From positions 33,052 through 97,051 of IMG/VR virus record IMGVR_UViG_2513237329_000015: DNA of 64,000 nucleotides; one strand, written 5' to 3'. The stretch's first letter is position 1; every line of letters starts with the position of its first letter. Source of the stretch: a virus (Duplodnaviria > Caudoviricetes). Below are positions 31,610 through 48,623 of this stretch, in pieces. The notes below the pieces were generated by a model, which searched no databases, was not told where the DNA came from, and was given only the letters and a program-made list of their open reading frames with translations. A program made the position numbers and the translations under genes.

Positions 31610-32986
31610 ATGAGCTTACGGGAAAAAATGCTGGCCGTCATGGCCGATATGAACGAGCAGGTGGTGGAACGGGAGGAGCTGATCGAGGCGATCGCCATTG
31701 CGCTCCTGACCCGTAAGAACCTGTTTATTTTGGGCGCTCCTGGACAGGCCAAGAGCTTTGCCATCAACCAATTTCGTGCCCGAATCACCGGAGCGCGCCA
31801 GTTTGAACGCCTCCTCACCAAGCAGACAGATGAGGACCAGCTTTTCGGCCGCGTGGATCTGGCAAGCCTTATCCCCGGCGGAGTATCCCAGGCAGTTTTA
31901 GAGCAGGATCTGTATTACCGGGAGCTGCAGGCGCACCTGACCGGCGCCATGGAGCAATTCCGACAGCAAGACGGTGATACAAGCGCCGCCGAGGCGCTTC
32001 AGGCCGCTCAGGAACAGCTCTCCAGCTATACAAAGGCGCTGGGGCAGCTCCATGCCGGAACGCCATGCGTGAATACCACAGACAAGATCCCGGAAGCGGA
32101 TATTATAATGTTGGACGAGATCTTCAAATGTAACGATGGTGTGCTGAACTCTTTGCTGACCGCGCTTAATGAGCGCAAATACACCAACGAAGGCCGTACA
32201 TACTCCATCCCCGCAGTCTCCTTCTTTGCCGCCTCCAATGAGGTACCGAATTTCAACGACCCACAGGAAAAAATCCTGGAGGCCCTCTATGACCGCCTGG
32301 ACCTGAAGGTGGTGACGGCGGATATCGCCGAGCGGGACAACCGGCTGGCCATGCTGCGGAAAAAGCAGAGTGGAACGGCTGGAAATATTGCAGCCACAAT
32401 CACGCTGGATGAACTGAAAGCCATGCAGAGAGAAGCAGCAGCGCTTCCTGTGCCGGACTCCGTCCACGAGCTGGCAGACGATATCCTCTGTGCGCTGCGG
32501 GAAAACGGCATCCGGGTGTCCGACCGAAAGTATCTCAATTATGCGCCGGTGGCCCAGGCCAAGGCGTGGCTGTCCGGCCATGCCGCGGTGATGCCGGAGG
32601 ATCTGCTGGCCCTGAAAAATTATCTCTGGGATGCGCCCCAGGACCGGGAGACGGTGGAGCAGACGCTCCGCCGTATGTGCATCAATCCTATGCAGGACAA
32701 AGCCAACAACATTCTGGCAATGGCTCTGGAGGCACAGGATGAATTTGATGAAATCAGGACCGGCTCCGACGACCCCAATGTGGGACGCAAAGCGTTCATC
32801 AAACTGCGCGGGGAGCTAATCCGCCTCTATGGAATGCAGCAGCAGCTTGCAGCCTCCACACAGGGGCCCAATGAAGCTGCGGTAACGGACAAGCTGCTTG
32901 AAGAGCTGGAACAGAGCAGCCGTCAGGCTCACGAGGCGGTGGGCTTCACCTACATCCCTTTGGAGCAGCAGGCCGCCCTGCAATGA
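31610..32986 (+). CDS. MoxR/RavA-family AAA+ ATPase
   Basis: GAPGQAKS, LDEIFK, LNSLLTALNER, ASNE, ALYDRL, SDR. Confidence 0.9.
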   Translation: MSLREKMLAVMADMNEQVVEREELIEAIAIALLTRKNLFILGAPGQAKSFAINQFRARITGARQFERLLTKQTDEDQLFGRVDLASLIPGGVSQAVLEQDLYYRELQAHLTGAMEQFRQQDGDTSAAEALQAAQEQLSSYTKALGQLHAGTPCVNTTDKIPEADIIMLDEIFKCNDGVLNSLLTALNERKYTNEGRTYSIPAVSFFAASNEVPNFNDPQEKILEALYDRLDLKVVTADIAERDNRLAMLRKKQSGTAGNIAATITLDELKAMQREAAALPVPDSVHELADDILCALRENGIRVSDRKYLNYAPVAQAKAWLSGHAAVMPEDLLALKNYLWDAPQDRETVEQTLRRMCINPMQDKANNILAMALEAQDEFDEIRTGSDDPNVGRKAFIKLRGELIRLYGMQQQLAASTQGPNEAAVTDKLLEELEQSSRQAHEAVGFTYIPLEQQAALQ

Positions 32987-33080
32987 TCGTTTACGAGCAG
33001 ATAACTTAATAACACGGAGGTCGGTGAATGACAGAGCGCCACTTGAAAATGAATTATGGAACTATTTGGAGGGGATAAAA

Positions 33081-33554
33081 ATGCTAAACAGGGCTATCAT
33101 GATGGGCCGCTTGACCCACGATCCGGAGTTGAAAACGACACAGGCAGGGACGCAGTTTTGTAGATTCTCTATCGCATGCGACCGGGACTTCAAAAACACA
33201 AGCGGCGAAAAGGAAACGGATTTCTTTGACTGTGTGGCATGGCGCAAGACGGCTGAGTTTGTCAGCCGGTATTTCGCAAAGGGACGTATGATCATTGTGG
33301 AGGGCCGGATGCAGAACCGGAGCTGGACGGACAAAGAAGGAAATAAACGGCGCAGCACCGAGATCATCGTTGATGCCGCCCACTTCGGCGACTCCAAGCC
33401 CAAGGGGGAAGATGGCGAGCCCCCGGAGCCTCCGGCGGGAGGCGGGGACGGCTTCGGGTTCCCCGGCGGCTTTAACCCAGATCTGAGTGGAGTCGGGGGC
33501 GGTGTGGGCTCTGATTTTGGGGCTGACGGTGACGACGGCGAACTGCCCTTCTAG
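33081..33554 (+). CDS. ssb: Single-stranded DNA-binding protein
   Basis: MLNRAIMMGRLTHDPELK...; acidic tail DDGELPF. Confidence 0.95.
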   Translation: MLNRAIMMGRLTHDPELKTTQAGTQFCRFSIACDRDFKNTSGEKETDFFDCVAWRKTAEFVSRYFAKGRMIIVEGRMQNRSWTDKEGNKRRSTEIIVDAAHFGDSKPKGEDGEPPEPPAGGGDGFGFPGGFNPDLSGVGGGVGSDFGADGDDGELPF

Positions 33555-33643
33555 CATGCTTACAATTGGAAATTCTCTGCGGCGGGGGTCTTCCCGGCCT
33601 CCGCCGCAGAGAAGCACCATATTATCGGAGGAGAATTCATTTT

Positions 33644-33946
33644 ATGGCGAAGTGTCTTATCTGCAAAGAAGATGTAACCTCTGGCTATGTGCTATGCCGG
33701 CACTGTGCCGGAAAACTGGAACCCTATACCCTGCCGCCGGAACTATCCTATTTTATTGACCAGCTCGCAGAAGAAATTGTGCTGAGCGAAACCATCCCGA
33801 CCTGCCGGCTGTGCTCTATCGGGGAGTGTCAGAGCCAGGTCGGCGGCCTTGTCTGCCGAAATGCGGTAAAGGCGTGGCTGCTGGAGCGGGCGAAGCGGTA
33901 TTTGTGTCCAAAGGCAGAGGCAAAGACGGGAGATAAACGGGAATAA
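33644..33946 (+). CDS. Small Cys-rich (Zn-binding) protein
   Basis: CLIC, CRHC, CRLC; GGAGG RBS. Confidence 0.6.
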   Translation: MAKCLICKEDVTSGYVLCRHCAGKLEPYTLPPELSYFIDQLAEEIVLSETIPTCRLCSIGECQSQVGGLVCRNAVKAWLLERAKRYLCPKAEAKTGDKRE

Positions 33947-33955
33947 AATGTTCTA

Positions 33956-34009
33956 TTGACGTGTGGAGAAGTTGTGCTATAATATAAATGTAACTAAAAT
34001 GCAGTTACA
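33956..34009 (+). promoter_or_regulatory. hicAB promoter and palindromic operator
   Basis: TTGACG-N16-TATAAT with extended TG; TGTAACT-N7-AGTTACA (33989-34009). Confidence 0.75.
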
Positions 34010-34029
34010 AATGGAGCTGAGAAAATAGA

Positions 34030-34293
34030 ATGTCAAGAATAGATACCTTGCTGAATAAACTATGTGGAAAGCCTACGCCGGCCAACTTCCGTTTTTCAGA
34101 GCTTCGGAAAGTGATGTCATATTTCGGGTATCTGGAATCGAATAAAGGCGCGACTTCTGGTTCCAGGGTTAAATTCTACCATCCAAAAACCAAAGCGGTG
34201 CTCTTGATTCACAAGCCGCACCCCGGAGATGAGATGGTAAAGGCAGCGGTGGATTCCGTAGTTAGATTTTTGAAGGAGCATGGCCATATATGA
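34030..34293 (+). CDS. hicA: HicA family toxin
   Basis: FSEL...GATSGSRVKF...IHKPHP. Confidence 0.88.
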   Translation: MSRIDTLLNKLCGKPTPANFRFSELRKVMSYFGYLESNKGATSGSRVKFYHPKTKAVLLIHKPHPGDEMVKAAVDSVVRFLKEHGHI

Positions 34294-34631
34294 AGAATAG
34301 CGACTTGCTGCATTATAAGGGATATACAGCCCGGCCGGAATATTCCGTTGAGGATCGTGTTTTTTACGGCACAATTCTGGGGATAGATGATATGGTGGAC
34401 TTTCAGTCGGAGAGCGCAAAGGATTTGGAGGAACAGTTCCATAAAGCGGTGGATGACTATTTGAAATTTTGCGCTGAGATCGGGAAAGAGCCCCAAAAGA
34501 AGTACAGTGGTTTGTTTAACGTCCGTATTCCGCCGGAACTGCACCGGGAGCTTTCGCTGCTGGCCCAGGCGGAAGGCATAAGTCTTAACAAGGCTGTAGA
34601 ACAGGCTATCCGCACCATGGTCCAAAGCTGA
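34290..34631 (+). CDS. hicB: HicB family antitoxin (RHH)
   Basis: YKGY...FHKAVDDYL...YSGLFNVRIPPELHR...SLN. Confidence 0.92.
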   Translation: MKNSDLLHYKGYTARPEYSVEDRVFYGTILGIDDMVDFQSESAKDLEEQFHKAVDDYLKFCAEIGKEPQKKYSGLFNVRIPPELHRELSLLAQAEGISLNKAVEQAIRTMVQS

Positions 34632-34720
34632 GACTGGTAAGGGGGTATTCCTTATACCTTGCCTGTTTTAATAAGTATTTAATCAAACAAAACAGACCGG
34701 CTTTGCCCGGTAAGCTCAGA

Positions 34721-34763
34721 AACATGAAGCAGTACAAACCGTACCGCTTCATGTTCTTTTTTT
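34721..34763 (+). terminator. Intrinsic terminator immediately upstream of the VWA gene RBS
   Basis: AACATGAAGC-A-GTAC-AAACC-GTAC-C-GCTTCATGTT-C-T7. Confidence 0.8.
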
Positions 34764-34781
34764 GAAAAGGAATGGTGACAT

Positions 34782-36386
34782 ATGAGAAGACCATACCGCA
34801 CGATTGGCGATGTGCTGCGCTCTCCCTGGGCAGGACTCATACCAAAGGAGGAGACGCCGCCGCAGCAGAACGACCGTGTCCTGCACTCCACAAAGCTGGA
34901 AGACCGTATTTATGCTGATCTCAGGAACGGCGACCCGGCAATGGACGCACTGGAACAGGCCGCAGGGGAAAAGCTGCGCTCTTTTCCAGCTCTGGCCCGG
35001 GATACGTACCAGTCCTTTTACTCGCTTTTACCACACCGCATTGAGGACGGGAAGTTGTCGGCAGCGGCCCGGAAATTCAATGGCCCCATTCTGGAGAATA
35101 TGCTGCAAAGCGAGGACTATCCTACGCTGAAAAGCATCTGTGAAGGCCGGGAGCTCCCAGCCTACGAGGCGGCCGCGGAATTTGCAGCCCGAGTGGGCGG
35201 CGAACTGGATCAACTTCTCGCCGGCCTGGGCGGGGAGAAGGGCGCCGTCAATACGCTGGAAAGGCTGGAGGCCGCTCAGGAAAAGGCCCAGGAAGAGCTT
35301 GCCGCACTCCTGGAGCGGATGCGCAAGAGCGGCGGGCAGAATGATGTTCTGGAACAGGCTATCATTGCCGCGGCCAATACCGCCGAGAGCAAGCAGAGGC
35401 AAGTGGAGGCGGTGAACGGGATGATTGACGTAAGTGCCGCCAGAAACAAGGATGTGGTGTCCACGCTGGTTGCGTCCGCAACGGCACAGGCAGCGGAAAA
35501 GGCGGAGGAGGTGCGGTCCATTATCGCCGCCTGGGGCAATGAGCCGGGAGATCTGAAGCGCACCGAAGCCAATACCAAGATTCTTGACCTGGTACGCCAG
35601 AGCGACGTCCTCAAAAACGTGGCGAAGTACCTAGGGCGCTTTCGGGAAATCTTTGCGCAGGGAAAGAGAAACGGCTATGCCTACGGCCGGGGGGAGACCT
35701 ATTCGCTGGAGCTTGGCAGCAACCTTTCCCGGGCGATTACCTCAGAGCTGTCCATGCTGGCCTCTCCCGCCACGCTGCCGCTGTTTCTCCAGAAATACCA
35801 GCGCAAGCAGATCAAGCAATACCAACGCCGGGAGCCTATTTATAAGGGCGCCGGGGACATCATCTGCTGTTTGGATGAATCCGACTCCACGGAAGGAGAC
35901 CTTGCCGCTTGGGGAAAGGCCGTGGCCCTGACTCTCCTGGAAATCGCGGAGGACGGCGGCCGTAAATTCGCGTTGATCCATTTTTCTGATGCAAGCTCCC
36001 TGAAGGCCGATCTGTTCCTGCCCGGCGGACTCGGGCAAGGCAAGTACAGCCCGGAGAGCAAGATGGAGGCGGCACAGACCTTCCTCGGCGGCGGGACGAA
36101 CTTCGATACGCCCATGTGGCAGGCTGTGAGCTTGATCGAACGGCAGGGATTTGAGCACGCCGACATTGTATTTATCACGGATGGAGAGTGCTGTATCTCA
36201 GAAAAATTTTTAGAGAAACTGCGTACCGCGCAGGCAGAACACCGCTTCACCATTACCGGAATCCTGCTGGATCAGGGAGAGCCTGGTATGAAGTTCAGTT
36301 TGCAGGAATTCTGTCAGAATATCTACCGAACCTCAGATCTTCTTGGAGATGATATCGTCAGGAAGCTGGTAGCGGCAAGAGTTTGA
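34782..36386 (+). CDS. ViaA-like VWA domain protein
   Basis: MIDAS motif LDESDS, GGTNF, ITDGE. Confidence 0.88.
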   Translation: MRRPYRTIGDVLRSPWAGLIPKEETPPQQNDRVLHSTKLEDRIYADLRNGDPAMDALEQAAGEKLRSFPALARDTYQSFYSLLPHRIEDGKLSAAARKFNGPILENMLQSEDYPTLKSICEGRELPAYEAAAEFAARVGGELDQLLAGLGGEKGAVNTLERLEAAQEKAQEELAALLERMRKSGGQNDVLEQAIIAAANTAESKQRQVEAVNGMIDVSAARNKDVVSTLVASATAQAAEKAEEVRSIIAAWGNEPGDLKRTEANTKILDLVRQSDVLKNVAKYLGRFREIFAQGKRNGYAYGRGETYSLELGSNLSRAITSELSMLASPATLPLFLQKYQRKQIKQYQRREPIYKGAGDIICCLDESDSTEGDLAAWGKAVALTLLEIAEDGGRKFALIHFSDASSLKADLFLPGGLGQGKYSPESKMEAAQTFLGGGTNFDTPMWQAVSLIERQGFEHADIVFITDGECCISEKFLEKLRTAQAEHRFTITGILLDQGEPGMKFSLQEFCQNIYRTSDLLGDDIVRKLVAARV

Positions 36387-36435
36387 GCAGAAGATAGAGG
36401 TATATAGTAGCATATAGTAGAAGGGAGAACTTCTC

Positions 36436-36594
36436 ATGACAGTTTATTACGAAAATGAAGCCGCCGTTGACGCCGCCCTGCAAGCGGCTAAGACGCCAGA
36501 CGATGTACGCAAGATTGCGCAGGACTTAGAAACACGCATGGCTCCTCGCCATTGGATTCAAAAGGCTTGGGACTACTATCGGTCTATGTTATAA
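36436..36594 (+). CDS. 52-aa small protein not in the ORF track
   Basis: AAGGGAG RBS; MTVYYENEAAVDAALQAAKTPDDVRKIAQDLETRMAPRHWIQKAWDYYRSML. Confidence 0.55.
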   Translation: MTVYYENEAAVDAALQAAKTPDDVRKIAQDLETRMAPRHWIQKAWDYYRSML

Positions 36595-36662
36595 TCCAGA
36601 TATATTTAGCGCCCCTCCCTATGGAGATATAGGGAGGGGCTGCGTCTTTAATGGGCGTCGTC

Positions 36663-36895
36663 GGCAGCTCCGCATTTCCGCCCTGGCAGCTCCGGGCCGG
36701 TCTGGTGTCCAGCCACTCCCATGGGGATACATCCGTCTGCGCTCCCCTCTCTTGGTGGCCACCCAGTTCCCCAGGACAGCTCTGGGCCGGCCGGGCGGCT
36801 GCCGGCCGCTCCCATGGGGAAGATGGTGCCATACTGCTCTCCCCTTCCTTGGCGGCCACCCAGCTCTCCAGGGCAGCTCTGCATTTCCTCCTCGG
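36663..36895. repeat. Imperfect GC-rich tandem repeat (~90-97 bp units) flanked by GGCAGCTC[C/T]GCATTTCC
   Basis: CTCCCATGGGGA...CTTGG[T/C]GGCCACCCAG occurs twice. Confidence 0.65.
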
Positions 36896-36928
36896 CCACT
36901 TCTGGCCGTCTCCAGTAAACCGATAGCA

Positions 36929-37108
36929 TCAGCCCTTCTGGTCGCTTCCTTCTCTTCCTTTTTTCCTCTGCTCTGTGAATACCGAAAGAATCTCCCCACT
37001 GCGATTCCGCAAAACCAGCGCATCCAGATCATCATCAATCGGCTCAAACCACAGGGTCACTTCGTCATATTCCCTTACAATGCCATACTCGATCTTAAAC
37101 TTTTTCAT
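36929..37108 (-). CDS. 59-aa small protein not in the ORF track
   Basis: GAGGGG RBS; MKKFKIEYGIVREYDEVTLWFEPIDDDLDALVLRNRSGEILSVF... Confidence 0.5.
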   Translation of the reverse strand: MKKFKIEYGIVREYDEVTLWFEPIDDDLDALVLRNRSGEILSVFTEQRKKGREGSDQKG

Positions 37109-37573
37109 GGTAGTATTCCCCTCGTATAATAAGATTTGCAGACAGTTTTAAGTGGGTCTGATTAGTTCACTTTTGAATATCAGCAGGCTTTGAGGTGCCC
37201 GTGATACAATAGCTGTAGGACAGCAGGGTCAAGTTCTTTGTATTCCTAGTTGAGCTGTAAGGTTGCTTCAAAGGAAGTCTGTCCCCCTGGCTCGGAAGTT
37301 AGCTGCAAACTCATTGACTGTTTGCCGGGGACAAGGCCGCCCTTTCAGCAATGAGGGATATCGCATTGGTCTGCCCCGGAATGATTCTAATAAGCGAGGT
37401 TGCCAGATGCTCCGGTTATCATGGGTATCTCAAAGCCTGCTGGCCTGAAATCTCCATATGGTGAAATTCAATCATCGAATAGGACGGAACGCATTTAATA
37501 AGCAAGAAAAGAGATAAAACGAAGCCGATAAAAAATGAGGGACTCGTGTTGATAGCACAGGCTCCTTCATTAT

Positions 37574-38266
37574 TCATTTGAATCCAAACACATACCCGGA
37601 ACCGTGGATGGTCCGAATATATTCTTTATCGCTTGGCGGAAGCCCGAGCTTTTTCCGGATTGAGCAGATATGGTTGGAAATGCTCTCTCCTCCACAGTAA
37701 GCAGAATCTTTCCACAGAACCTCATAAATATGATCTCTGGAAAAAATATTTCCACGATTACTGGCCAGCAGATATAGGATTCTAAACTCCTGTGTTGTGA
37801 GTTCAATGGGGCTCCCAAACAGCTTCACTTCCTGGCTGGAAGGGTCCAGAAATAGGCCTTTATAAACAATTTCACCTTTTCGAACACCTGGGGAGACCAT
37901 CCTTATGTCCAGGCGCTGCAGCATAACTGAAATTGCGGCTGCACACTCCGCCGGGTCCTCGGATGCCACACACATGTCAAAGCCACGGCGGTAAAACTCG
38001 GTTCGGGCCTCCCTATTCAAGATCGGATAGAGCAGCAACAGGGTTCCCTTTGCGTTCTTCAAATCAAGCAGCTTGTTCAGAAGCGGGGCACTCCCTGAAA
38101 CACTCCCACTCATTGCAACCAAATCTATCTCCTCGGAGTAGAGCATGGGAGATGCGGTGCGCTCGTTGTGAGCCGTTGAAAAAGTAATCTGTGTTCCGGC
38201 TATGAGGCATTCTATTTGTGCAATGCGGGAGATTTCATTATCAATTAAGAATACATGCTTTCCCAT
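37574..38266 (-). CDS. Orphan OmpR-family regulator with degenerate receiver domain
   Basis: Winged helix LTTQEFRILYLL...IYEVLW...HICSIRKKL...IRTIHGSGY; phosphoacceptor position reads DLVAMS. Confidence 0.85.
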   Translation of the reverse strand: MGKHVFLIDNEISRIAQIECLIAGTQITFSTAHNERTASPMLYSEEIDLVAMSGSVSGSAPLLNKLLDLKNAKGTLLLLYPILNREARTEFYRRGFDMCVASEDPAECAAAISVMLQRLDIRMVSPGVRKGEIVYKGLFLDPSSQEVKLFGSPIELTTQEFRILYLLASNRGNIFSRDHIYEVLWKDSAYCGGESISNHICSIRKKLGLPPSDKEYIRTIHGSGYVFGFK

Positions 38267-38495
38267 AGCTGGCTGTGTTCTCCCAAAGGCTTATAGCTAA
38301 ATTCACTCAAATGCAAACAATGACCTCTACAGCTTTATAGGCGCCCCCTCAAGGATAGGCCCGTCTGAGGGGGGCTCGGCGAGATACACCGCAGACTTCC
38401 GACAGAAACGGTGTTCTCTATTTTTGCTTTTGTCCAGCCATCATTATAAGGGCTATGCCGAAAAACGTCAAATTTAGGTGTATAGCTCGTTTTGA

Positions 38496-38725
38496 TTGGA
38501 AAAACTCCACCTATACAGGAGAGAAAAGGGCTGATAGAATAAAGGCGTATTCTAGGTCAGAGCAAGATTAAGGGCGGAGTAAGTTAGGGCGGAACGGCGT
38601 GGAAGGAGGGTGAAGTCTGCCCTCTGCCGGACAGCTACGACCTGGAAAATTGAATCTGGACATGAATGACTGTAATTGCCTTTTGGGGCGGTTGCGGTCT
38701 TTTTTGTCCCCAAATACGAAAGGAG
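38496..38725 (+). promoter_or_regulatory. Duplicated promoter + structured leader + intrinsic terminator, copy 2
   Basis: TATACA(38512)-N17-TAGAAT(38535); terminator from 38668; RBS GAAAGGAG. Confidence 0.85.
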
Positions 38726-38733
38726 CTTTCCAT

Positions 38734-40269
38734 ATGAGTGAGCAGAACAGCACCGGCTGGCCGTTTGGTCAGGCAGCAGGCGAAGGACTTGACATCAGCG
38801 CCATCTTTGGTACTGGAACCGCAGATCCAGACCGAAATCCATTTGACCCCACAGGAGCGGCCTCTGCTCCCGCGGCATCTGTTACGCCGCCCCCTGCGGC
38901 GCCTGTCACGCCGTCCCCCGCAGCGCCTGTCACGCCGCCTCCTGCGGCGCCTGTCACGCCGCCTCCTGCGGCACCTGTCATGCCGCCCCCTGCGGCACCT
39001 GTCACACAGCCCCCCGCGGCACCTGTCACACAGCCCCCTGCGGCGCCTGTCGCGCAGTCCCCTGCGGTGCCTGTCGCGCAGTCCCCTGCGGCGCCTGTCG
39101 CGCAGTCCCCTGCGGCGCCTATCGCGCCGCCCCCCGCGGCGCCTGTCACGCAGTCTCCTGTGGAGGCTGAACAACCCGCCAATCCCATTGAAGCGGCGTT
39201 TGCCAAGCAGGAAATGGCAAACGCCCAGCAAAACCTTCTGGAGAAAAAGCCCATCTTCTGCCACAAGGGGGCCAAAGAACCCATCGAAGATCCCACGATT
39301 ACCTTTGAGGAGTTGCGCATCTGCAAGGCTGAGGACTTTGTGGATTTGGAAGAGGGCAAAACTGTCTCCTGGTCAATGGAATACGGCGGCATCCGAAAGG
39401 AAGTCAAGGACCCCAAGGGGACGACCATCGCCGCTATGAAGCAGAGCATTGAGCGGTCCCGCGAGTTCCTGGAGGCCCTGAAAAAGTCCAAGGACAAGAA
39501 TCCGGACTGCTTGGTGAGACCCAAGGTTATCATGAAGACTAAGGGCATTCTCTCTCCTTACAAAGCCCACTGTGAGTCTCTGGAGGAGGCCAGGAAGTCG
39601 GACAAAGTGATCTGTCTCGTCCCCTCCGGAGACGGAAAGCTCTATGAGGTGCGCAAGCTGGAACAGGGGGAATTTATCGCCCCAGCGAAGAAAGCGTCTG
39701 AGTTTCAGGTGGTCAAGGCCGGGTTTACCCCGGCTTTGCCCCTGATCCCCATGGCGCTGATCGGGCAGATCACCGCCTTCTTCCGCTCCTTCATGCGGGA
39801 AAACGAGGAGAACGAGGCACTGGCGCTTATCTATTGGGATAAGGTCGAGCAGCGGTTTTTCGCCTATGTGCCCCCGCAGGTTGTATCCACAGGGGATGTC
39901 GAGGCGGATCTCCGTGACTGCCCTTATGACGATGATACCCGGTACATCCGCTACGCAGACCTTCATAGCCACAATTCGATGGAGGCATTTTTCTCCCCAA
40001 AGGATGACCAGGATGAGCAGGGCACCGGCCTCTATCTTGTTATGGGACAGGTAAACCGCTTCTTCCCGGAGCTGCGGGCGCGGTTCTCCTGCAATGGTTC
40101 TTTTGTGGAGATCGATCCCGGAGCGATTATCGAGGGCCTGACTCAGCCATTCCCGGAGGAGTGGAGCGGGCATGTGAAGCGGCGGAAAGACCGCGGCCAG
40201 GCCAAGCCGATCCGGACGACCTACCGGCACTTACGGCCATACACCGAGTTCCCGGAGGTGGAGCCATGA
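38734..40269 (+). CDS. Pro/Ala repeat region + putative Ubl (ending TKG) + JAB/MPN metalloprotease (PRTRC C/A-like fusion)
   Basis: JAMM residues ENEALA...DLHSHNSMEAFFSPKDDQDE; central KPIF...EDPTITFEELR...F.DL...MKTKG. Confidence 0.8.
   Translation: MSEQNSTGWPFGQAAGEGLDISAIFGTGTADPDRNPFDPTGAASAPAASVTPPPAAPVTPSPAAPVTPPPAAPVTPPPAAPVMPPPAAPVTQPPAAPVTQPPAAPVAQSPAVPVAQSPAAPVAQSPAAPIAPPPAAPVTQSPVEAEQPANPIEAAFAKQEMANAQQNLLEKKPIFCHKGAKEPIEDPTITFEELRICKAEDFVDLEEGKTVSWSMEYGGIRKEVKDPKGTTIAAMKQSIERSREFLEALKKSKDKNPDCLVRPKVIMKTKGILSPYKAHCESLEEARKSDKVICLVPSGDGKLYEVRKLEQGEFIAPAKKASEFQVVKAGFTPALPLIPMALIGQITAFFRSFMRENEENEALALIYWDKVEQRFFAYVPPQVVSTGDVEADLRDCPYDDDTRYIRYADLHSHNSMEAFFSPKDDQDEQGTGLYLVMGQVNRFFPELRARFSCNGSFVEIDPGAIIEGLTQPFPEEWSGHVKRRKDRGQAKPIRTTYRHLRPYTEFPEVEP
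38868..39160 (+). repeat. 24-bp coding tandem repeat (PAAPV[T/A][P/Q][P/S]), about 12 copies
   Basis: CCTGCGGCGCCTGTCACGC.G.C. units. Confidence 0.9.
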
Positions 40270-41033
40270 GGTTTCCCACCGATGTCCCGGTCAAGCTTGT
40301 GATGCTGGGAACTGGCGGGACCGGCGGGCACGCCGCCCCCCACCTCTACCGGATGCTGCACGCATTGAACCGGCCCGCACGGTTTATCCTCTGCGACGGG
40401 GACCTGGTGGAAGCGAAAAACCTTATCCGACAGAATTTTGCGCCCGCCGACCTGGGGCAGAACAAGGCCAGGGTGTTAGCTGAGCGGTATGCCTCCGTGT
40501 TTGGGATGAAGGCGGAATATGTGCCCTCCTTCGTGGAGACACGGGAGGAGCTGATGCGTCTGATCCGGCCCGGCATCTGGGAGATCAAGGAAGGTCCTTA
40601 TCTCTATAAGCTCAAGCGGGAAATGGTGCTTCTGCTGGGCTGTGTGGACAACAACAAGTCCCGGAGGCTCTGCCACGAGGCGTTCTGCCAGTCGCAAGAC
40701 CTGGTCTATATTGACAGCGGGAATGAGGAGTTCTCCGGCCAGGTGGTCTGCGGGGTGCGGCGGAATGGGCGTACCATCTTTAAGCCCGTCGGCGGGATCG
40801 CCCCTGAAATTTTGAAGGCGCAGGACCGTTTTCCCTCGGAGATCAGCTGCGCAGAGGCGGCCCAGGCGGACCCGCAGAGCATGGCGGCCAATATTATGGC
40901 GGCTACCGTAATGGTGGATATGGTCTACAATATCCTGGCCCATGGGCGCAGCCGCGTCCGTGTTACAGAGTTTTCCACACAGACGGCAAAAATGCAAACA
41001 ACTTTAGAAAGTGCAAAGAGGGTGGCAGCATGA
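40266..41033 (+). CDS. ThiF/E1-like adenylyltransferase (PRTRC-type)
   Basis: GTGGTGG, DGDLVEAKNLIRQNF, GCVDN, DSGN, putative catalytic ISCAE. Confidence 0.9.
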   Translation: MRFPTDVPVKLVMLGTGGTGGHAAPHLYRMLHALNRPARFILCDGDLVEAKNLIRQNFAPADLGQNKARVLAERYASVFGMKAEYVPSFVETREELMRLIRPGIWEIKEGPYLYKLKREMVLLLGCVDNNKSRRLCHEAFCQSQDLVYIDSGNEEFSGQVVCGVRRNGRTIFKPVGGIAPEILKAQDRFPSEISCAEAAQADPQSMAANIMAATVMVDMVYNILAHGRSRVRVTEFSTQTAKMQTTLESAKRVAA

Positions 41034-42127
41034 AAACCATCGTTGACGCGAAGCCATTTTCCGACGCGCTGGCAAACGCCTGTACGGTGCCGCGCAAGTC
41101 CAGGATTCCCTGCCTGAACGAGGTCTACGTCCACGCATACCCGGACAAGTGTATCCTGGCCGCCACAGACCTGACGACATGGTTTATCACAGAAATCCCG
41201 GCCCAGGGGGATGAATTTTCCTTCATTTTTTCCCGAAGCTGCGTTGCGGAGAAAGCCAGCCGGTACTTCTGCGGAGAACTGGTCATGGAGTATGACGTGC
41301 TGGAGAACGAAAAGCGTCCCCGCTCCCGGCTCACCATGCGAAATGGCGCCCGGACCTGCGAATTTGAAGCCAGTTCCGGAGAGGACTACCCCGATCTGCC
41401 CAATGAGGACGGCGCCCCTCTGTTTTCTGTTCAGGCCGGCCGGCTTATGGACCGGATCAAGCGCACCGGATATGCGGCCGAGAAGCCTTCGGCCCATGCC
41501 CGGCCAATCGGCAGCTGCATCCAGTTCAGCGGCAACAGTATTTTTGCCCTGGACGGCCGCCGGATGGCATGGGACACCGATGAAAGCCTTACAGCGCCGC
41601 GGGAGTTCGGCCTCCAGCTGGACTTTCTGGCCCACTTGAAGGTGTTTGGCGAGGCCCGGGTGGATTTCCTCTGGGGAGCGCACTACCTTCAAGTCACAGA
41701 CGGGCGCACGCATCTGTTTTCTCAGCACCGTGAATTATCCGTATTCAACTTCCAGGGAGCAATCCCCCAACGATACGCCGAGCAGTTCACAGTCAGTCCC
41801 AAAGAGTTCCTGCGGGAGCTCACCTACCTAAAGGGTCTCCTTCCCAAGAGGGCAAAGCCGTATGTCTATTTCCACAACGGTACGCTCACAGCGCTGGCCT
41901 CCGGGGAGAAATACCGGACCGCCATATCAATTTCGGGAGAGACGGATTTGACCGTCGGTTTCGATTTGGTCTACATGATGGATGCTTTAAAACAGTTTTC
42001 CGGTAAACCCCGGGTCACGGTGAAGTTCGGCGGAGGGATGTCTCCCATTGTGGTCGGGGCAGAGAACCGCAGCGACCACGCACTGGTACTCCCCGTCTGG
42101 GTAAAGAGTGATGCAGATGTGGCGTAA
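41030..42127 (+). CDS. Beta-clamp paralogue 2 (divergent)
   Basis: 365 aa; LAATDL, DYPDLP, ALDGRRMA, GFDLVYMMDAL, SPIVV, LVLPV. Confidence 0.8.
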   Translation: MKTIVDAKPFSDALANACTVPRKSRIPCLNEVYVHAYPDKCILAATDLTTWFITEIPAQGDEFSFIFSRSCVAEKASRYFCGELVMEYDVLENEKRPRSRLTMRNGARTCEFEASSGEDYPDLPNEDGAPLFSVQAGRLMDRIKRTGYAAEKPSAHARPIGSCIQFSGNSIFALDGRRMAWDTDESLTAPREFGLQLDFLAHLKVFGEARVDFLWGAHYLQVTDGRTHLFSQHRELSVFNFQGAIPQRYAEQFTVSPKEFLRELTYLKGLLPKRAKPYVYFHNGTLTALASGEKYRTAISISGETDLTVGFDLVYMMDALKQFSGKPRVTVKFGGGMSPIVVGAENRSDHALVLPVWVKSDADVA

Positions 42128-42214
42128 CGTACCGAAAATAGAGCGACAGAAGGAAAAGACACAGCCGAATGCCGTGCCCTCGGCCAGAAATTGATTGACA
42201 GGAGTGTAAGAACT

Positions 42215-42595
42215 ATGAAAACCGTCTATATTCCCAAAGGACATACCGTGTGCTATGAGTCCCTGGAAACGGAGCATCTTGTAGTAGAGGGGTGCCTGAA
42301 GACCACCTGCGGCGTCAAGGCCAAGACCATCACGGGCGGCGGCGTGCTCAGCGCCGGCACCACCTCTGCGGATGTAATCTGCCTGGACGAGCTGGAGACC
42401 GGCTCTGTCTTCTGCCGCCGCCTGCTCGCCAGGCGGGTCCAGACGCCGGAGCTGTTCGCTTCGGACAGCGCAGCGGTATCCTGTTTCCTCTCCGCGGCCT
42501 ATGTGGAGACCGGCAAGTTGACCGTGTCCATCAGCGAGACCGACGAGGTGAAGGCTGACGAGGTGATTCACCTCAAACCAAAAAACGCGGTATGA
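42215..42595 (+). CDS. Beta-strand-rich hypothetical protein (bactofilin-like beta helix?); possibly frameshift-fused to next ORF
   Basis: AGGAG RBS; V/T/G-rich; ends just after A-AAA-AAC. Confidence 0.55.
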   Translation: MKTVYIPKGHTVCYESLETEHLVVEGCLKTTCGVKAKTITGGGVLSAGTTSADVICLDELETGSVFCRRLLARRVQTPELFASDSAAVSCFLSAAYVETGKLTVSISETDEVKADEVIHLKPKNAV

Positions 42596-42963
42596 TCGCC
42601 ACGCTTCTGCTCTCCGCGCTGCGTTCCTTCTGGACCGGTCTCACGGCCCGGAACGGCTGGTATGAGCCGATGGACGCGGACTATATGCCAGCGGAATCCG
42701 TACCGGAGGCCGCCGGCCAGTCTGGTGCCGTACCGGAGGTCAATGCCGATACGGCGCATATCCTGGCGACTGACGCAAAACCGGAGGCGGGACAGACTCC
42801 GGAAGCAGAGGACGAGCCGGATGAAGAGCTCAACCGCGTGATCGGCCTGTTCAAGCTGGCCCGGGAATCCGGCTATACGCTCCGTCTCATCCCCGGCACT
42901 CCGGAGGAAAACGCGCCTGCATTTAATTTTCAGGAGCAGCGTGTCATTCCTCCCGCGGCATGA
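42592..42963 (+). CDS. Acidic hypothetical protein (possible C-terminal half of the previous gene)
   Basis: No clear RBS; lies in the -1 frame of the previous ORF. Confidence 0.5.
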   Translation: MIATLLLSALRSFWTGLTARNGWYEPMDADYMPAESVPEAAGQSGAVPEVNADTAHILATDAKPEAGQTPEAEDEPDEELNRVIGLFKLARESGYTLRLIPGTPEENAPAFNFQEQRVIPPAA

Positions 42964-42967
42964 GCGC

Positions 42968-43177
42968 ATGCGGGAGGTTGCCTATGAGGAGCGGCGCGTC
43001 CTGACGGTAGATGGAAAGGCCGTGCTCCAGATCCGAGCCTGCCGGGGGATGCTCCAGCCGGACGGTACGCTCCGTCTGCTGGCATATGCCGGCCGCCGGT
43101 GTCTGCTTTCTCAGGCGGAGACCGGCGCTGCCTCAGCGGGACAGAATACGACCACGAAAAAACGCGCGGCGGCTTGA
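42968..43177 (+). CDS. Small hypothetical protein
   Basis: Fills the operon gap; weak RBS. Confidence 0.4.
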   Translation: MREVAYEERRVLTVDGKAVLQIRACRGMLQPDGTLRLLAYAGRRCLLSQAETGAASAGQNTTTKKRAAA

Positions 43178-43266
43178 ACCGCCCGCGTGGAAGGCCGGGA
43201 AGCAGCAGGCTTCCCGGCCTTCTCAACGTTTGAAATAAAATGATTGAGAATGTGGAGGAAGCAAAT

Positions 43267-43716
43267 ATGTCGAACAAGTCTCAGGAACTCAATATGCGCC
43301 GTCTCGCCGCGCTGCTCAGTCAGGATCTCAGCTACATCGGAGGAGAACGGGAGTGTGGTCCGAATGGGGCCAAGCGAACCTTCCTGAACGTGGGGAAAAC
43401 CTTCCTGCGGGCCTTGGCAAAGGATCTCTGCCTGCATGATGTGACGGTCCGATCCAACGCCGGTGGGATCGCCGTATCCGGTGAATGCTGCCTTTACGGA
43501 ATGTGGGAAAACAACGGCATCTTTATTGAGATCTCTCAAAGCTGCTGCAGCTGGGTTGGGCCGGTCCTGTACCGTACCATCCGGAACGCCCACGACCACA
43601 AGGGCGGGCACAGCCGGTATCTGAGTTTGAACGATTTGAAAAAGTGCTCCTACAATGAGGTCTTGGAGTGTTTTTCCTCCTTGCGGAAGGGGTACGGCTG
43701 TGAGCGGGCCGCTTGA
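43267..43716 (+). CDS. Hypothetical MGE protein
   Basis: GGAGG RBS; SNAGGIAVSGE motif. Confidence 0.7.
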   Translation: MSNKSQELNMRRLAALLSQDLSYIGGERECGPNGAKRTFLNVGKTFLRALAKDLCLHDVTVRSNAGGIAVSGECCLYGMWENNGIFIEISQSCCSWVGPVLYRTIRNAHDHKGGHSRYLSLNDLKKCSYNEVLECFSSLRKGYGCERAA

Positions 43717-45112
43717 GGAGCGGGATGAGCAGCAGTTCTACGCCTCCGAACGGCTCAAGGACTGCCAGCACATGATTCTGCGTATGGCGCAGTCCCTGGT
43801 GGTGCAGAGGGCCAGGGTTGAAAAGGCCCGTAGCGCCGGCCTTGCCGCCGCCCGGGACGCCTATTCTGATCTGCAGGAGGTGCGCGGCTATCTGCTGGAA
43901 GCGCTCTCCGACGTCCGGCCCTGTCTCATGGAGGTGGAGGAGTACAAGCTGGCTGCTGCCGCGGGACAACTCCACGCGGGGCTTGCACACTTCGATCTGA
44001 TGTCAACGGCTTATAAGCCGGTCTATGACGCACTCTGCGGCTTTGCTGGTTCTCTTCCAGTCAGCGGTACCACCAATGCCGCCGTGGTCGGACGGCTTAT
44101 GAACAATATCAAGCTGGGGTATTACCCCACCGACCCGGACAATATCGCACTGCTGCTCCGGGGTATTCAGTTCCCGGAGGGTGTTACCACCAACCTCCTT
44201 GATCCCTGCTGCGGCTGCGGGAAGGCCCTGCGGCAGCTCGCCGAGGGGAACAACTGCTTTGCCTACGGCGTGGAGCTGGACGAAAGCCGCGCCGGGGAGG
44301 CGCAGACCCGCCTGCACCGTGTAGGCTTCGGCAGCTTTTTCTTCAGCCGGATCAGCCGTGAGGCGTTCCATCTGCTGTTTCTGAATCCGCCTTATCTGTC
44401 CGTACTCAATGGCAGCGGCGGGCAGTCCCGGCATGAAAAGCGGTTTCTCATTGAGAGCATCGGCCACCTAACCTATGGGGGCCTGCTGGTCTATGTGATC
44501 CCCTATTACCGCCTTACCCCGGACATCTGCCGTATCCTGATGGACAATTTTGAGGCTCTCTCTGTCTGGCGCTTTACCGATGGGGAGTTCAAGCGGTTCA
44601 AGCAGGTGGCCGTCCTGGGCCTTCGGAAGCGGAGAGAGACGGAGCCGCCGGATACCCTGTGGCTGGAGCAGTACGCGGTCTCCCCCGCATCCATCCCCAG
44701 CATTTCAGACCTGCCGGAGCACCGGTATGCGCTTCCAGCTTACCCCCTGGAGGTCACGACCTTCATGGGCGAGAGATTCAATCAGAAGGAGCTGGAGCAG
44801 CAGCTCAAGCGATCCAACAGCTTTCAGCAGCTTATGGCCCGCAGCGAACTGGACAACGATGTAAAACGGCCGCCGCTCCCGCTCTCCATCGGGCAGATCG
44901 GCCTTGTGGGCGGCTCCGGTATGATCAACGGGCTCGTCCGGTGCAATTTTCCACACGTCATAAAGGGACGCATTGTCAAAGTGATCCGGACGGAGACGGA
45001 GGAAAAATTCAGCGCTGAAGGTAAACACCTGGGATCGGAGATCCGCGAGACAATCGCCAACAAAATGATCTTCAATGTTCTGACGCCTAACGGATTTAAA
45101 TCCCTGGCATAG
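43700..45112 (+). CDS. DUF6094-like SAM-dependent DNA amino-methyltransferase
   Basis: GYYPT, LDPCCGCG, GVELD, FLNPPY. Confidence 0.85.
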   Translation: MSGPLEERDEQQFYASERLKDCQHMILRMAQSLVVQRARVEKARSAGLAAARDAYSDLQEVRGYLLEALSDVRPCLMEVEEYKLAAAAGQLHAGLAHFDLMSTAYKPVYDALCGFAGSLPVSGTTNAAVVGRLMNNIKLGYYPTDPDNIALLLRGIQFPEGVTTNLLDPCCGCGKALRQLAEGNNCFAYGVELDESRAGEAQTRLHRVGFGSFFFSRISREAFHLLFLNPPYLSVLNGSGGQSRHEKRFLIESIGHLTYGGLLVYVIPYYRLTPDICRILMDNFEALSVWRFTDGEFKRFKQVAVLGLRKRRETEPPDTLWLEQYAVSPASIPSISDLPEHRYALPAYPLEVTTFMGERFNQKELEQQLKRSNSFQQLMARSELDNDVKRPPLPLSIGQIGLVGGSGMINGLVRCNFPHVIKGRIVKVIRTETEEKFSAEGKHLGSEIRETIANKMIFNVLTPNGFKSLA

Positions 45113-45122
45113 CGAGGAGGAA

Positions 45123-45410
45123 ATGATGTTATTTACGGAAACGTCCGGACGGTTCTCACCTGGCCGTCTTATCGCGAGCGAAGACCTGCTAGCATGTGTG
45201 GCAAAAGAAGAGCTTCTAAACGCCTATTGCCATCACCTGAATTGCGACTGGGGTGACGTCCCGGATTCAGTTCAGCAGAGCAACGATTATGCACTTAGCC
45301 ACGGCGAGGCTCTGCTCTCTGTCTATACATCAACCGGCGGAATCCGGTTTTTGATCGTCACGGAGGCGGACCGGTCGGCCACGACCTGTTTACTTCCAGA
45401 AGAATATTAA
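45123..45410 (+). CDS. Conserved small plasmid/ICE protein
   Basis: H..CDWGDV...N..AL..G..LLSVY...IVTEADRSATTCLLPEEY. Confidence 0.8.
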   Translation: MMLFTETSGRFSPGRLIASEDLLACVAKEELLNAYCHHLNCDWGDVPDSVQQSNDYALSHGEALLSVYTSTGGIRFLIVTEADRSATTCLLPEEY

Positions 45411-45427
45411 GAAACGAGGTATGCTAT

Positions 45428-45997
45428 ATGGCTATGACAGCGCTTCCTCTGGCGTTCATTGTTCCGGCTGAGGAGCTTCCCGCAGACGACCGCACGGCGC
45501 AGGGCGCCGTATGGTCTACTGTGGCCAGCCTGCTTCAGTCTGGCCTTGGCAGAAAATTCTCCAAATTCTATCCCCAGCTCCGACTGGAACAACAGGGAGG
45601 TTACGCCCCCTTCGGCGTGGTTCTCGGCCGAGCTGCCCCGCCCCTGTTTCGGGAGCTCTACCGTAAGGCGCTGGACAGGCAGGCTGGCGCGATCATGCAC
45701 CATACGCTGAACACGCTGTCCCGCTTGAATCCAGATCAATTTTTTGAGGAGGACGGTACCATCGTCTGTCCGGCCGTTATAGATGGCAGCGATCCTGACC
45801 TGATGTTTCACGGCCTCTGGCATCTGGCGATGCAGCAGGGCGAGATTCTTCCCGACTGCGGTGTTTACCATGTCGCGCAGAAACGGGCGTCTATTGAACC
45901 GAAGGAAGTGCAGCAGACGCTGGCGCACCCCGAACGTTATGCCCTCTGCATGGTCTGCCTGGAGCCGCCGGAGGTGCCGTGTGATGATGAGATTTGA
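45428..45997 (+). CDS. Hypothetical protein
   Basis: GAGGT RBS; overlaps next gene. Confidence 0.65.
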   Translation: MAMTALPLAFIVPAEELPADDRTAQGAVWSTVASLLQSGLGRKFSKFYPQLRLEQQGGYAPFGVVLGRAAPPLFRELYRKALDRQAGAIMHHTLNTLSRLNPDQFFEEDGTIVCPAVIDGSDPDLMFHGLWHLAMQQGEILPDCGVYHVAQKRASIEPKEVQQTLAHPERYALCMVCLEPPEVPCDDEI

Positions 45998-46283
45998 CCC
46001 GGAGCAGTTCTTCCGGCTTTTGCAGCAGCTTCCGCCCAGCCAGCCCATGTCGGAACCGGCGGAGCACAGCGCCTACCTCCAGCGGGAGGTATTCGACAGG
46101 CTGAAGAACCACGAGCTCATCGATCTGACAAAGCTGGACTGGGATGCGTTCGACCTCAGCCACGTGACGCCGGAGGACTATGAGCACAGGTACAAAATCA
46201 ACCAGTCGAACTGGCTGCAGGGCTTTAACAGGATGCTTCAAGGCATAGAGCCTGCGGCGCTGGAAAAGCAGGTATTCTTCTGA
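45984..46283 (+). CDS. Hypothetical protein
   Basis: GGAGGTG RBS. Confidence 0.6.
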   Translation: MMRFDPEQFFRLLQQLPPSQPMSEPAEHSAYLQREVFDRLKNHELIDLTKLDWDAFDLSHVTPEDYEHRYKINQSNWLQGFNRMLQGIEPAALEKQVFF

Positions 46284-46294
46284 GGAGGGGGACA

Positions 46295-46837
46295 ATGTAC
46301 GACTACGATGACTACGAAGAGGATGTACTTCTGGTGCTGCGCGTACTGAAATACCTGCACGGCGTACAGACCAGGGAGGAATTTCTGAAAACACTCAACC
46401 ATTGCACAGAGGCAGGGATGGATGAGCTGTATGAGCTGGCAGATACCTTCACCTGGGAGCTTTTCCCCGCAGCGGTATTTGATATAGATGAAGAATGGGA
46501 TGCCACAACGATGTCCTTCTCTCATCCCAATATAGACTGCTATCTGTCTTTGACCGGCCGGCTGGACACCACACATGGGCACAGGCTTGCCCTTCGGAAA
46601 CGCCTGGAGGACATCGCGCTGTATTTCTGCATGGTGACGGACTCAGTGACAGGAGTGCAGTTCTCCCCTATGGACGAATCGACCTGCGTAAAGCTGCGGT
46701 TCTCTCCGGACTGCTGCGATACGCTGGGCTTTGCCAATTCCATGGTGGATCTGCTGCGCTATCTCGACCGGGAAAACCGGCGCCTGGAGAAGCTGTGCCT
46801 GGAACAGCAAAATGAAAGTGATAAGGAGGCGGCCTGA
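46295..46837 (+). CDS. Acidic hypothetical protein coupled to the E2 gene
   Basis: GAGGAGG RBS; TGATG overlap. Confidence 0.7.
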   Translation: MYDYDDYEEDVLLVLRVLKYLHGVQTREEFLKTLNHCTEAGMDELYELADTFTWELFPAAVFDIDEEWDATTMSFSHPNIDCYLSLTGRLDTTHGHRLALRKRLEDIALYFCMVTDSVTGVQFSPMDESTCVKLRFSPDCCDTLGFANSMVDLLRYLDRENRRLEKLCLEQQNESDKEAA

Positions 46838-47526
46838 TGGCTCGGCCAGAAAACAGAGATTATACGCGGGACTCCTGCATCCGGTGGTCCCCGGAACGGG
46901 GTTTGCTCATTGTGGAGGAGAAAAAGGAAGATGGGGTGATATCCTGTCAGCAGATTGACCCGTTTGACCTCTATTGTGCGCTCAACGAGGGTTATAACAA
47001 CAAGGATTTTCTCTCCAGCGGCTTCCTGCCGGAGCACTGCCTTTCCGTGGCAATGAACGGCTCGGAGCGGTACTTTGTGCTGTGGAACCCGGAGCTGCGG
47101 GCCGATCTGACCTATTTGAATACGGAGTACCCGGACTTCCCGCTCCCCCGGCTGGTGTTCGGTATCCGCATGCTGAACACCGGACGGATCGCGGAGTGTT
47201 CCATCGGCGTTGCAGCGGATGAATCCCCAAGGCCGGAGACGGCGATGTATGAGTATCCGTTCTCCAACGTTCATCCGGACCGGAAGCTGTGTGCGGGCAA
47301 TAACGTCCTGCCCAGATACAAAAATATCCTGAGCATGAAGCACTTTCCCCGCTATGTGCTGGGCCTGCCGGACAACGATGATCTGTACGACCGGGAGCAC
47401 AACCGCCTCGGACTTGGCCATGCCGAGCTGATGGAACACCTGAAGGACAAAGACCCCGCGTATTACTACACGGATGTTCTGGTGCCCCGCGGCGACACCC
47501 TAGGGGACTTTATCATTGGGAGGTAA
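46837..47526 (+). CDS. Prokaryotic E2 family D protein (PRTRC B-like)
   Basis: SGFLPEHCL, FPLPRLVF, YPFSNV...LCAGN with putative catalytic Cys. Confidence 0.78.
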   Translation: MARPENRDYTRDSCIRWSPERGLLIVEEKKEDGVISCQQIDPFDLYCALNEGYNNKDFLSSGFLPEHCLSVAMNGSERYFVLWNPELRADLTYLNTEYPDFPLPRLVFGIRMLNTGRIAECSIGVAADESPRPETAMYEYPFSNVHPDRKLCAGNNVLPRYKNILSMKHFPRYVLGLPDNDDLYDREHNRLGLGHAELMEHLKDKDPAYYYTDVLVPRGDTLGDFIIGR

Positions 47527-47529
47527 GGC

Positions 47530-48576: not shown

Positions 48577-48623
48577 GAATCTGTGATAAATATTTGAGAA
48601 AATTTTTGGAAGGGAGACGCGCT

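Follow-up and report, generated by a model that had tools for sequence, protein, structure and literature searches.

The window analysed here, a stretch of 64,000 nucleotides, is part of a 97 kb provirus of the IMG/VR database (IMGVR_UViG_2513237329_000015, Caudoviricetes; positions 33,052 to 97,051 of that record). It contains an open reading frame (ORF) of 511 codons whose product is probably a pre-protein: a ubiquitin-like (Ubl) domain would be cut off after Gly271 by the JAB protease domain fused behind it, and would then serve the E1 and E2 enzymes encoded by the same element. A sequence-only reading of the window had drawn attention to this ORF, proposing that a segment resembling PRTRC protein C and ending in Thr-Lys-Gly is a Ubl hidden inside the JAB protease gene. 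PRTRC denotes the ParB-related, ThiF-related cassette, corresponding to operon type 6d of Iyer, Burroughs and Aravind (2006), in which protein A is a JAB protease, protein B is E2-like and protein C is the Ubl, accompanied by ThiF.

The four parts of the protein follow each other in the order N-terminal tail, Ubl, linker and JAB (Table 1). The frame is open upstream of the ATG at 38734 as far back as a TTG at 38650; the ATG is identified as the start by an AAAGGAG ribosome-binding site located 8 nucleotides upstream, in agreement with the N-termini of homologues and with the protein on record. The stop codon (40267-40269) overlaps the ATG of the E1 gene at 40266. Pfam and NCBIfam recognise only the C-terminal part of the protein, as Prok-JAB and PRTRC_A (profile positions 62-190 on residues ~326-459). 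The segment of interest begins with Lys-Pro-Ile-Phe, of which position 39247 is the first base, and ends with the Thr-Lys-Gly codons at 39538-39546, the Gly codon being at 39544-39546; frame and coordinates of this end had been read correctly from the sequence.

In an AlphaFold2 model of residues 160-511, the segment has a predicted local distance difference test (pLDDT) score of ~90, and confidence collapses exactly at Thr-Lys-Gly. A model of the domain alone, built from 60 diverse sequences, reaches a pLDDT of 90.4 and a predicted template modelling score of 0.79. DSSP assigns to this domain model the elements E10-13, E16-19, H27-35, E47-53, E56-60, H68-77, H79-87 and E95-101 (E, strand; H, helix), that is, a hairpin, a helix, a second hairpin, two helices and a final strand. 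Nearly all Foldseek matches in the PDB are chains of ubiquitin, NEDD8, SUMO or other Ubls (probability 0.9-0.98, TM score normalised to the target 0.55-0.68, E 0.03-0.1). The Foldseek-independent program VIA-align, run against 48,161 chains, gave Z scores of 5.8-7.1 for its best 50 rows, and every one of these that could be placed is a beta-grasp protein, including Ubl, FERM F1, RA/RBD, PB1, UBX and MoaD types. In the viral library BFVD, the matches are mainly ubiquitin-like proteins of giant viruses. Two further searches yielded little: phmmer found no match among PDB sequences for either the Ubl half or the JAB half, and a look-up of the domain in the ESM Atlas returned unnamed clusters only, all below 0.9. 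Taken together, the uniformity of the structural matches, the topology and the sequence evidence lead to a clear reading of the modelled domain as a predicted beta-grasp with a two-helix insert, the fold that the sequence-only reading had expected and that is now supported by the domain model and by three structure libraries.

At 90% identity, the family of the 511-residue protein numbers >840 clusters, which come for the most part from human-gut metagenomes and metagenome-assembled genomes of Oscillibacter. An exhaustive HMMER search with the domain alone retrieved 219 clusters at 50% identity, all of which have the identical architecture except for fragments; besides these fragments, the search found no stand-alone homologue of the domain. 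An alignment of 114 sequences with identities as low as 36% shows an invariant Gly271 (109/109), and Lys270 in 107 of 111. The conservation of the proposed Lys-Gly terminus, which had been put forward as a check, is thereby confirmed. About nine positions of the domain are invariant, corresponding to Gly271 and to core Phe, Arg, Trp, Tyr, Glu, Phe, Cys and Pro residues. Relatives have a linker of 2 to ~22 residues after the Gly, followed by the conserved start of the JAB module; in most of them, 3-4 residues separate Gly271 from the first conserved JAB residue. Ubl and JAB are encoded in a single frame at 85/85 scorable related loci. A conjugatable Ubl requires just such an unvarying Gly, carried by a flexible tail where one domain gives way to the next. 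Since Gly271 is internal in the primary translation product, its exposure needs cleavage. Two side results concern the same domain. Cys259 (39508-39510), which immediately precedes the final Ubl strand, is kept in 113 of the 114 sequences and is found neither in PRTRC_C nor in the Ubl parts of the Bacillaceae proteins described below. An internal duplication of the domain, which had also been claimed, was rejected as unproven, the hhalign comparison of the two halves being not significant (P 1.4e-3, probability 17%).

The claimed resemblance to PRTRC protein C is weak, without direct HMM match at E<=10, and stands at the level of profile-profile comparison: when 114 sequences of the domain were compared with 121 of PRTRC_C by hhalign, the probability was 73% (P 3e-5) and the 47 aligned columns spanned the first hairpin and the helix, the C-terminal half being left out of the alignment because of the insert. 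The helix carries a motif common to the domain and PRTRC_C with identical spacing, an Arg followed seven residues on by Tyr/Phe-Pro-Glu/Ser-Leu/Phe, which is also present in the Bacillaceae Ubl-JAB fusions. The domain does not have the small stand-alone form of PRTRC_C (~70 residues): it comprises 100 residues, is preceded by a tail of 170 residues and shares its ORF with the JAB. In PRTRC_C itself, 0-7 residues follow the closing Ala-Lys-Gly; the exact Gly end is found in ~7/121 sequences, and in the other ~114/121 canonical proteins a 2-7 residue extension follows the Lys-Gly, with a separate JAB present. The statement that the element has no free Ubl gene agrees with family searches of the whole 97 kb record, in which Prok_Ub (PF14454), PRTRC_C (TIGR03738) and ThiS were all without match. 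We also compared the domain with the 'JAB-N' region of Iyer et al., defined by a conserved Arg and Trp; this identity was rejected, because the PRTRC_A profile puts JAB-N at residues 272-325, past the Lys-Gly.

The JAB half scores 9.5e-14 with PRTRC_A and 2e-5 with Prok-JAB, and its fold matches those of AMSH, Sst2, Rpn11 and a bacterial Ubl deubiquitinase. The JAMM motif, Glu ... His-x-His-x7-Ser-x2-Asp, is complete with exact spacing, and its five residues, Glu361 (39814-39816), His411-x-His413 (39964-39972), Ser421 (39994-39996) and Asp424 (40003-40005), are invariant in 42 homologues. This JAB is the single one in the 97 kb record. The E1 and the E2 noticed at first sight were both recovered by profile searches (Table 1). 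The E1 gene, which overlaps the JAB gene by ATGA, is by this arrangement predicted to be translationally coupled to it, and the protein has invariant residues in 20 relatives (the nucleotide-binding Gly motif, Arg-Gln-Asn, the Asp of Val-Asp-Asn, Cys162 and Cys195). The E2 gene lies 6.5 kb downstream, with unrelated genes between it and the E1 gene; the putative catalytic Cys152 of its product is conserved from the window protein to canonical PRTRC_B.

Table 1. Position of the pre-protein gene, its parts and the associated genes in the window.
Feature	Position	Strand	Evidence
Proposed pre-protein (whole ORF)	38734..40269	+	Identical 511-residue protein on record; ribosome-binding site
Tail motifs Trp-Pro-Phe, Leu-Asp-Ile..Ile-Phe-Gly stretch and Asn-Pro-Phe (residues 1-46)	38734..38871	+	Consensus of 42 homologues
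24-nucleotide tandem repeat (11.7 copies, 88% matches); Pro/Ala-rich disordered spacer (residues 47-140)	38872..39151	+	
Ubl beta-grasp domain (predicted), residues 172-271, two-helix insert before last strand	39247..39546	+	Models, fold searches, hhalign
Lys270-Gly271, proposed mature C-terminus and scissile site (after Gly)	39541..39546	+	Conservation, drop in model confidence
Four-residue linker preceding the conserved Tyr-Lys-Gly/Ala start of the JAB module	39547..39558	+	
PRTRC_A-like JAB/JAMM metalloprotease, full motif	39559..40269	+	Profile matches, invariant motif
ThiF-type E1	40266..41033	+	ThiF 7e-14, PRTRC_ThiF 3e-26; ATGA overlap with JAB gene
DnaN (beta-clamp) paralogue, possible functional partner	41030..42127	+	Coupled to E1 by ATGA overlap
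E2-like protein, Prok-E2_D / PRTRC_B-like	46837..47526	+	Prok-E2_D 1e-7 (above Pfam cut-off), PRTRC_B 7e-9

Relatives were traced through plasmid matches of the E1, and they comprise fused, free and JAB-less forms. Fusions annotated as hypothetical proteins are present in Bacillaceae, namely BCE_A0098 of Bacillus cereus plasmid pBc10987 and a plasmid protein of Cytobacillus oceanisediminis. Their N-terminal motif is followed by a charged or low-complexity tail, a Ubl-like part that finishes with Lys-Gly and, lastly, a JAB of the PRTRC_A type; their genes lie directly upstream of ThiF, with the E2 gene adjoining. The Ubl part of the Cytobacillus protein aligns end to end with the window domain profile, the insert appearing as a gap (P 1.4e-4). 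On plasmids of Clostridium and Clostridioides, the gene between E2 and ThiF encodes a tail followed by a 70-residue protein that ends exactly in Lys-Gly-stop, as seen in 16/17 members of the Clostridium family and in the Clostridioides protein. Searches of two whole plasmids of this group, and within 8 kb in three more loci, detected no JAB; these elements also carry a DUF6094 methyltransferase and an SSB (single-stranded DNA-binding protein). The kinship of this free Ubl candidate to the window domain rests on gene position, tail architecture and C-terminus. A link between the Clostridium protein and PRTRC_C by profile was tried and rejected (P 0.005, inconsistent register, not significant).

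Within the window family itself, the protein P0137 is a JAB-less derivative, found in two sequencing runs (L100:2056-3504 and L101:98-1546), in which the JAB half is cleanly missing; it ends in Arg-Gly-stop six residues past the Lys-Gly, and ThiF follows 6 nucleotides later. Of the five short matches of the domain search that were followed up, P0163 may be a split form; P0228 and P0158 are uninformative (contig ends or disrupted context). The position of the Ubl gene directly upstream of E1 is kept in Clostridium, Bacillaceae and the window family. Comparative support for the proposal comes from the way in which the state of the Ubl C-terminus tracks the presence of a JAB across these elements: an extension together with a separate JAB, a fusion, or an exact stop in elements where no JAB was detected.

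On this basis, we propose that residues 1-271 would constitute a Ubl modifier of the PRTRC_C lineage, made of an N-terminal peptide motif, a Pro/Ala spacer and a beta-grasp ending in Lys-Gly, and that the PRTRC_A lineage would be represented by residues 276-511, as an active JAB/JAMM metalloprotease. Cleavage by this JAB of the bond that follows Gly271, either within the chain or by one copy on another, would yield a Ubl with a C-terminal Gly. The co-translated ThiF-type E1 would then adenylate Gly271 and the Ubl would be handed to the Cys of the PRTRC_B-type E2, before being attached to some target; the freed JAB may also reverse such conjugates. The term 'polyprotein', used in the sequence-only reading, is overstated for this arrangement, which would be a two-part pre-protein. 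Self-processing by the JAB domain is suggested by analogy with a studied system, since the JAB domain of BubCD was shown experimentally to cut BubAB, a fusion of Ubl and E2, immediately behind a conserved Gly (PMC11601596), and JAB-mediated release had already been predicted for fused Ubls by Iyer et al. 2006 (PMC1779556).

Several observations weigh against this proposal. The fold scores are moderate and each would be unconvincing singly (Foldseek E 0.03-0.1, Z <=7.1), and the segment alone, searched against Pfam and NCBIfam at E<=10, gives chance-level matches only, with neither Prok_Ub nor PRTRC_C among them. The free protein of Clostridium does not match the window domain significantly by profile (P 0.07). 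In L100, the JAB-less derivative has also lost the region from DnaN to E2 and, because of this further loss, may belong to a decaying system. The linker of 3-4 residues is perhaps too short for a cut within the chain, in which case cleavage between chains would be required. Finally, the absence of any split among the 85 scorable close loci is equally what a permanent two-domain enzyme predicts. This last possibility, which we regard as unlikely while taking it seriously, supposes that the Ubl is an uncleaved accessory domain of the JAB, docking the protease to E1/E2 or acting as a pseudo-substrate, and that the true modifier is a different one. The intact fusion and the very short linker past the Lys-Gly are in line with it, as is the strong conservation of the entire domain and not of its tail alone. 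There is also a precedent in USP-type deubiquitinases, since the Ubl domains inside USP4, USP7 and USP14 stay uncleaved. However, the element encodes an apparently functional E1 and E2, and the Prok_Ub, PRTRC_C and ThiS searches offer them no other Ubl candidate; moreover, the terminal Gly is invariant here, whereas accessory Ubls normally do not keep one. The JAB-less relatives, in which a tail-plus-Ubl protein with a basic-Gly stop is encoded beside E1, further suggest that the Ubl has a function of its own, apart from the JAB.

The E1 and E2 could instead act on another substrate, either a host protein of the ThiS/MoaD type or a non-Ubl C-terminus, as is the case for Cap2 of CBASS (cyclic oligonucleotide-based antiphage signalling system), the fused Ubl then being a remnant of PRTRC_C. 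The use of endogenous ThiS/MoaD proteins by such mobile operons was raised by Iyer et al. 2006 (PMC1779556). The E1-E2 enzymes of type II CBASS conjugate a non-Ubl C-terminus, and the distance of 6.5 kb and the unrelated genes between E2 and E1 would fit this reading too. We nevertheless consider it improbable, since a remnant would not have been conserved to this degree (nine invariant positions, the terminal Gly among them, over 219 clusters at 50% identity); nor does this reading fit with the occurrence of a Ubl gene directly upstream of E1 from Clostridium to Bacillaceae to the window family. Still less credible to us is that the host or another protease frees the Ubl and that the fused JAB only strips it from targets. 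The JAB enzymes of CBASS and Bil systems mainly reverse conjugation, and the Clostridium relatives do without a JAB; but the Ubl candidates of the latter require no cut, a cut by the adjacent, fused and Ubl-specific protease is the parsimonious solution, and BubCD provides a direct precedent for maturation by a JAB.

The closest known relatives of the system as a whole are the PRTRC cassettes. The JAB, E2 and E1 of the window have PRTRC_A, PRTRC_B and PRTRC_ThiF as their best matches, the order JAB then ThiF is the same, both occur on mobile elements, Lys-Gly preceded by a small residue forms the end of the Ubl in both, and the helix motif is common to the domain and PRTRC_C. Yet the scores remain below the trusted cut-offs of NCBIfam (49-51 bits against 102 for A, 92 against 145 for ThiF and 35 against 131 for B), the window Ubl is fused to the JAB, carries a 170-residue N-terminal tail and contains an insert of ~35 residues, the E2 is 6.5 kb away, and the unit is embedded among genes for SSB, MoxR-VWA, the DnaN paralogue, the DUF6094 methyltransferase and Rad52. 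ParB and the proteins E and F of PRTRC had no match among the window ORFs scanned. By these sequence comparisons, the window system is PRTRC-like and not an equivalog.

Type I Bub systems resemble the window system in that the Ubl forms the N-terminal part of a pathway enzyme and is cut after a conserved Gly by a JAB/JAMM protease of the same system, which makes its C-terminus available to the E1, as is proposed here. They differ in their fusions, Ubl-E2 and JAB-E1 in Bub and Ubl-JAB in the window, where E1 and E2 are separate genes; because the fusion partner is the JAB itself, processing in the window could be autocatalytic. Bub systems also use Tyr/Ser oxyester intermediates and a DUF6527 protease (not searched for here), whereas the window E2 keeps its Cys. 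Type I Bub would be an analogue in mechanism, built from different families, of which the window system is not a member. In the fusion of a lambda-type tail assembly protein I (a Ubl) with a JAB in an Escherichia coli prophage, a Ubl and a JAB likewise form one polypeptide on a phage-like element, and the JAB has been proposed to release the Ubl by a cut at its last Gly (Iyer et al. 2006, Table 1 row 5, PMC1779556); this fusion differs by its tail-assembly context without E1/E2 and its unrelated Ubl family, and was reported as a single case. The Bacillaceae fusions described above share with the window the architecture, the ThiF gene directly downstream and an adjoining E2 gene, with Rad52 and dnaN nearby in Cytobacillus. 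They differ by a shorter Ubl without two-helix insert, a Lys-rich instead of Pro/Ala-rich tail and a compact operon; their JAB halves are ~30-37% identical to the window JAB.

The N-terminal tail has features of its own. Bacterial Ubls with long disordered N-terminal tails are already known. Homologues of the 511-residue protein vary in length from ~430 to 590 residues, suggesting that the spacer probably gains and loses copies of its repeat. A short, conserved hydrophobic motif opens the Ubl tails both in the window (38734-38871) and in relatives (L090:3479-3520, L002:5483-5510 and L091:4595-4620), and in the Bacillus and Clostridium proteins it takes the form Asn-Leu-Phe-x-x-Phe at the extreme N-terminus. 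This motif could serve as a docking peptide; there is a loose similarity to clamp-binding motifs, and the gene beside E1 is that of a DnaN paralogue.

Profile scans of genome contigs and of viral contigs yielded 2 and 4 loci, respectively, and a metagenome scan supplied the long loci. In ~45 of the latter, the gene order is kept: MoxR, SSB, VWA, a variable gap, Ubl-JAB, ThiF, the DnaN paralogue and small ORFs, followed by the DUF6094 methyltransferase, further small ORFs, E2 and Rad52. The MoxR AAA+ and VWA genes, which flank the stretch 31610-36386 of the window, are thus retained in relatives, and a HicB-type antitoxin-like gene (34290-34631) is located between the SSB and VWA genes. The gap between the VWA and Ubl-JAB genes (36386-38734 in the window) ranges from ~1.4 to 8 kb in relatives and looks like an insertion site for cargo; in the window, it contains a reverse-strand OmpR-type winged-helix regulator (37574-38266) and a G+C-rich stretch (~36600-37050) with several frames open on both strands. 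PRTRC-like E1/JAB modules are found near dnaN paralogues not only in the window (41030-42127) but also in Cytobacillus (L094:1123-2247, with Rad52) and Chroococcidiopsis (L095:8602-9948, with dnaX), so that the link of such modules to sliding clamps recurs on unrelated plasmids. Another trait of the gene run 40266-50502 is that 8 of its 14 proteins end in Ala, 6 of these in Ala-Ala (ThiF, the DnaN paralogue, the products of the ORFs ending at 42963, 43716 and 46837, the methyltransferase, Rad52 and a 554-residue protein being the eight). The ATGA overlaps account for part of these endings only and the Ala ending is kept in ThiF homologues; a common C-terminal degradation signal is possible.

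The principle of a fused Ubl freed by a JAB is already known, and the parts of PRTRC-like systems are known from bioinformatics and uncharacterised. In the literature searched, of incomplete coverage, we found neither a published account of Ubl-JAB fusions in PRTRC-like systems nor a functional study of PRTRC (6d) cassettes. DnaN paralogues, Rad52, SSB and the DUF6094 methyltransferase are repeatedly linked to the system, which points to the replication of the element or its establishment and not to anti-phage functions of the Bil/CBASS type. One may speculate further, though we think it doubtful, that the autocatalytic Ubl-protease pre-protein initiates a pathway in which the released tail-plus-Ubl is conjugated to the replication/recombination machinery of the element, most attractively to the E1-coupled beta-clamp paralogue, with the tail motif as a tethered docking site. 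If true, clamp conjugation would be a bacterial/phage analogue of the ubiquitination and SUMOylation of PCNA.

The PRTRC-type cassettes of Bacillota had seemed to be devoid of a modifier. The presence of a predicted Ubl inside the JAB gene would complete their parts list (Ubl, E1, E2 and deubiquitinase) in a family of mobile elements that is very common in the human gut, and gives a basis for annotating proteins that are currently labelled 'hypothetical'. The pre-protein may represent a case in which a ubiquitin-like modifier is joined to its own protease in a precursor that processes itself.

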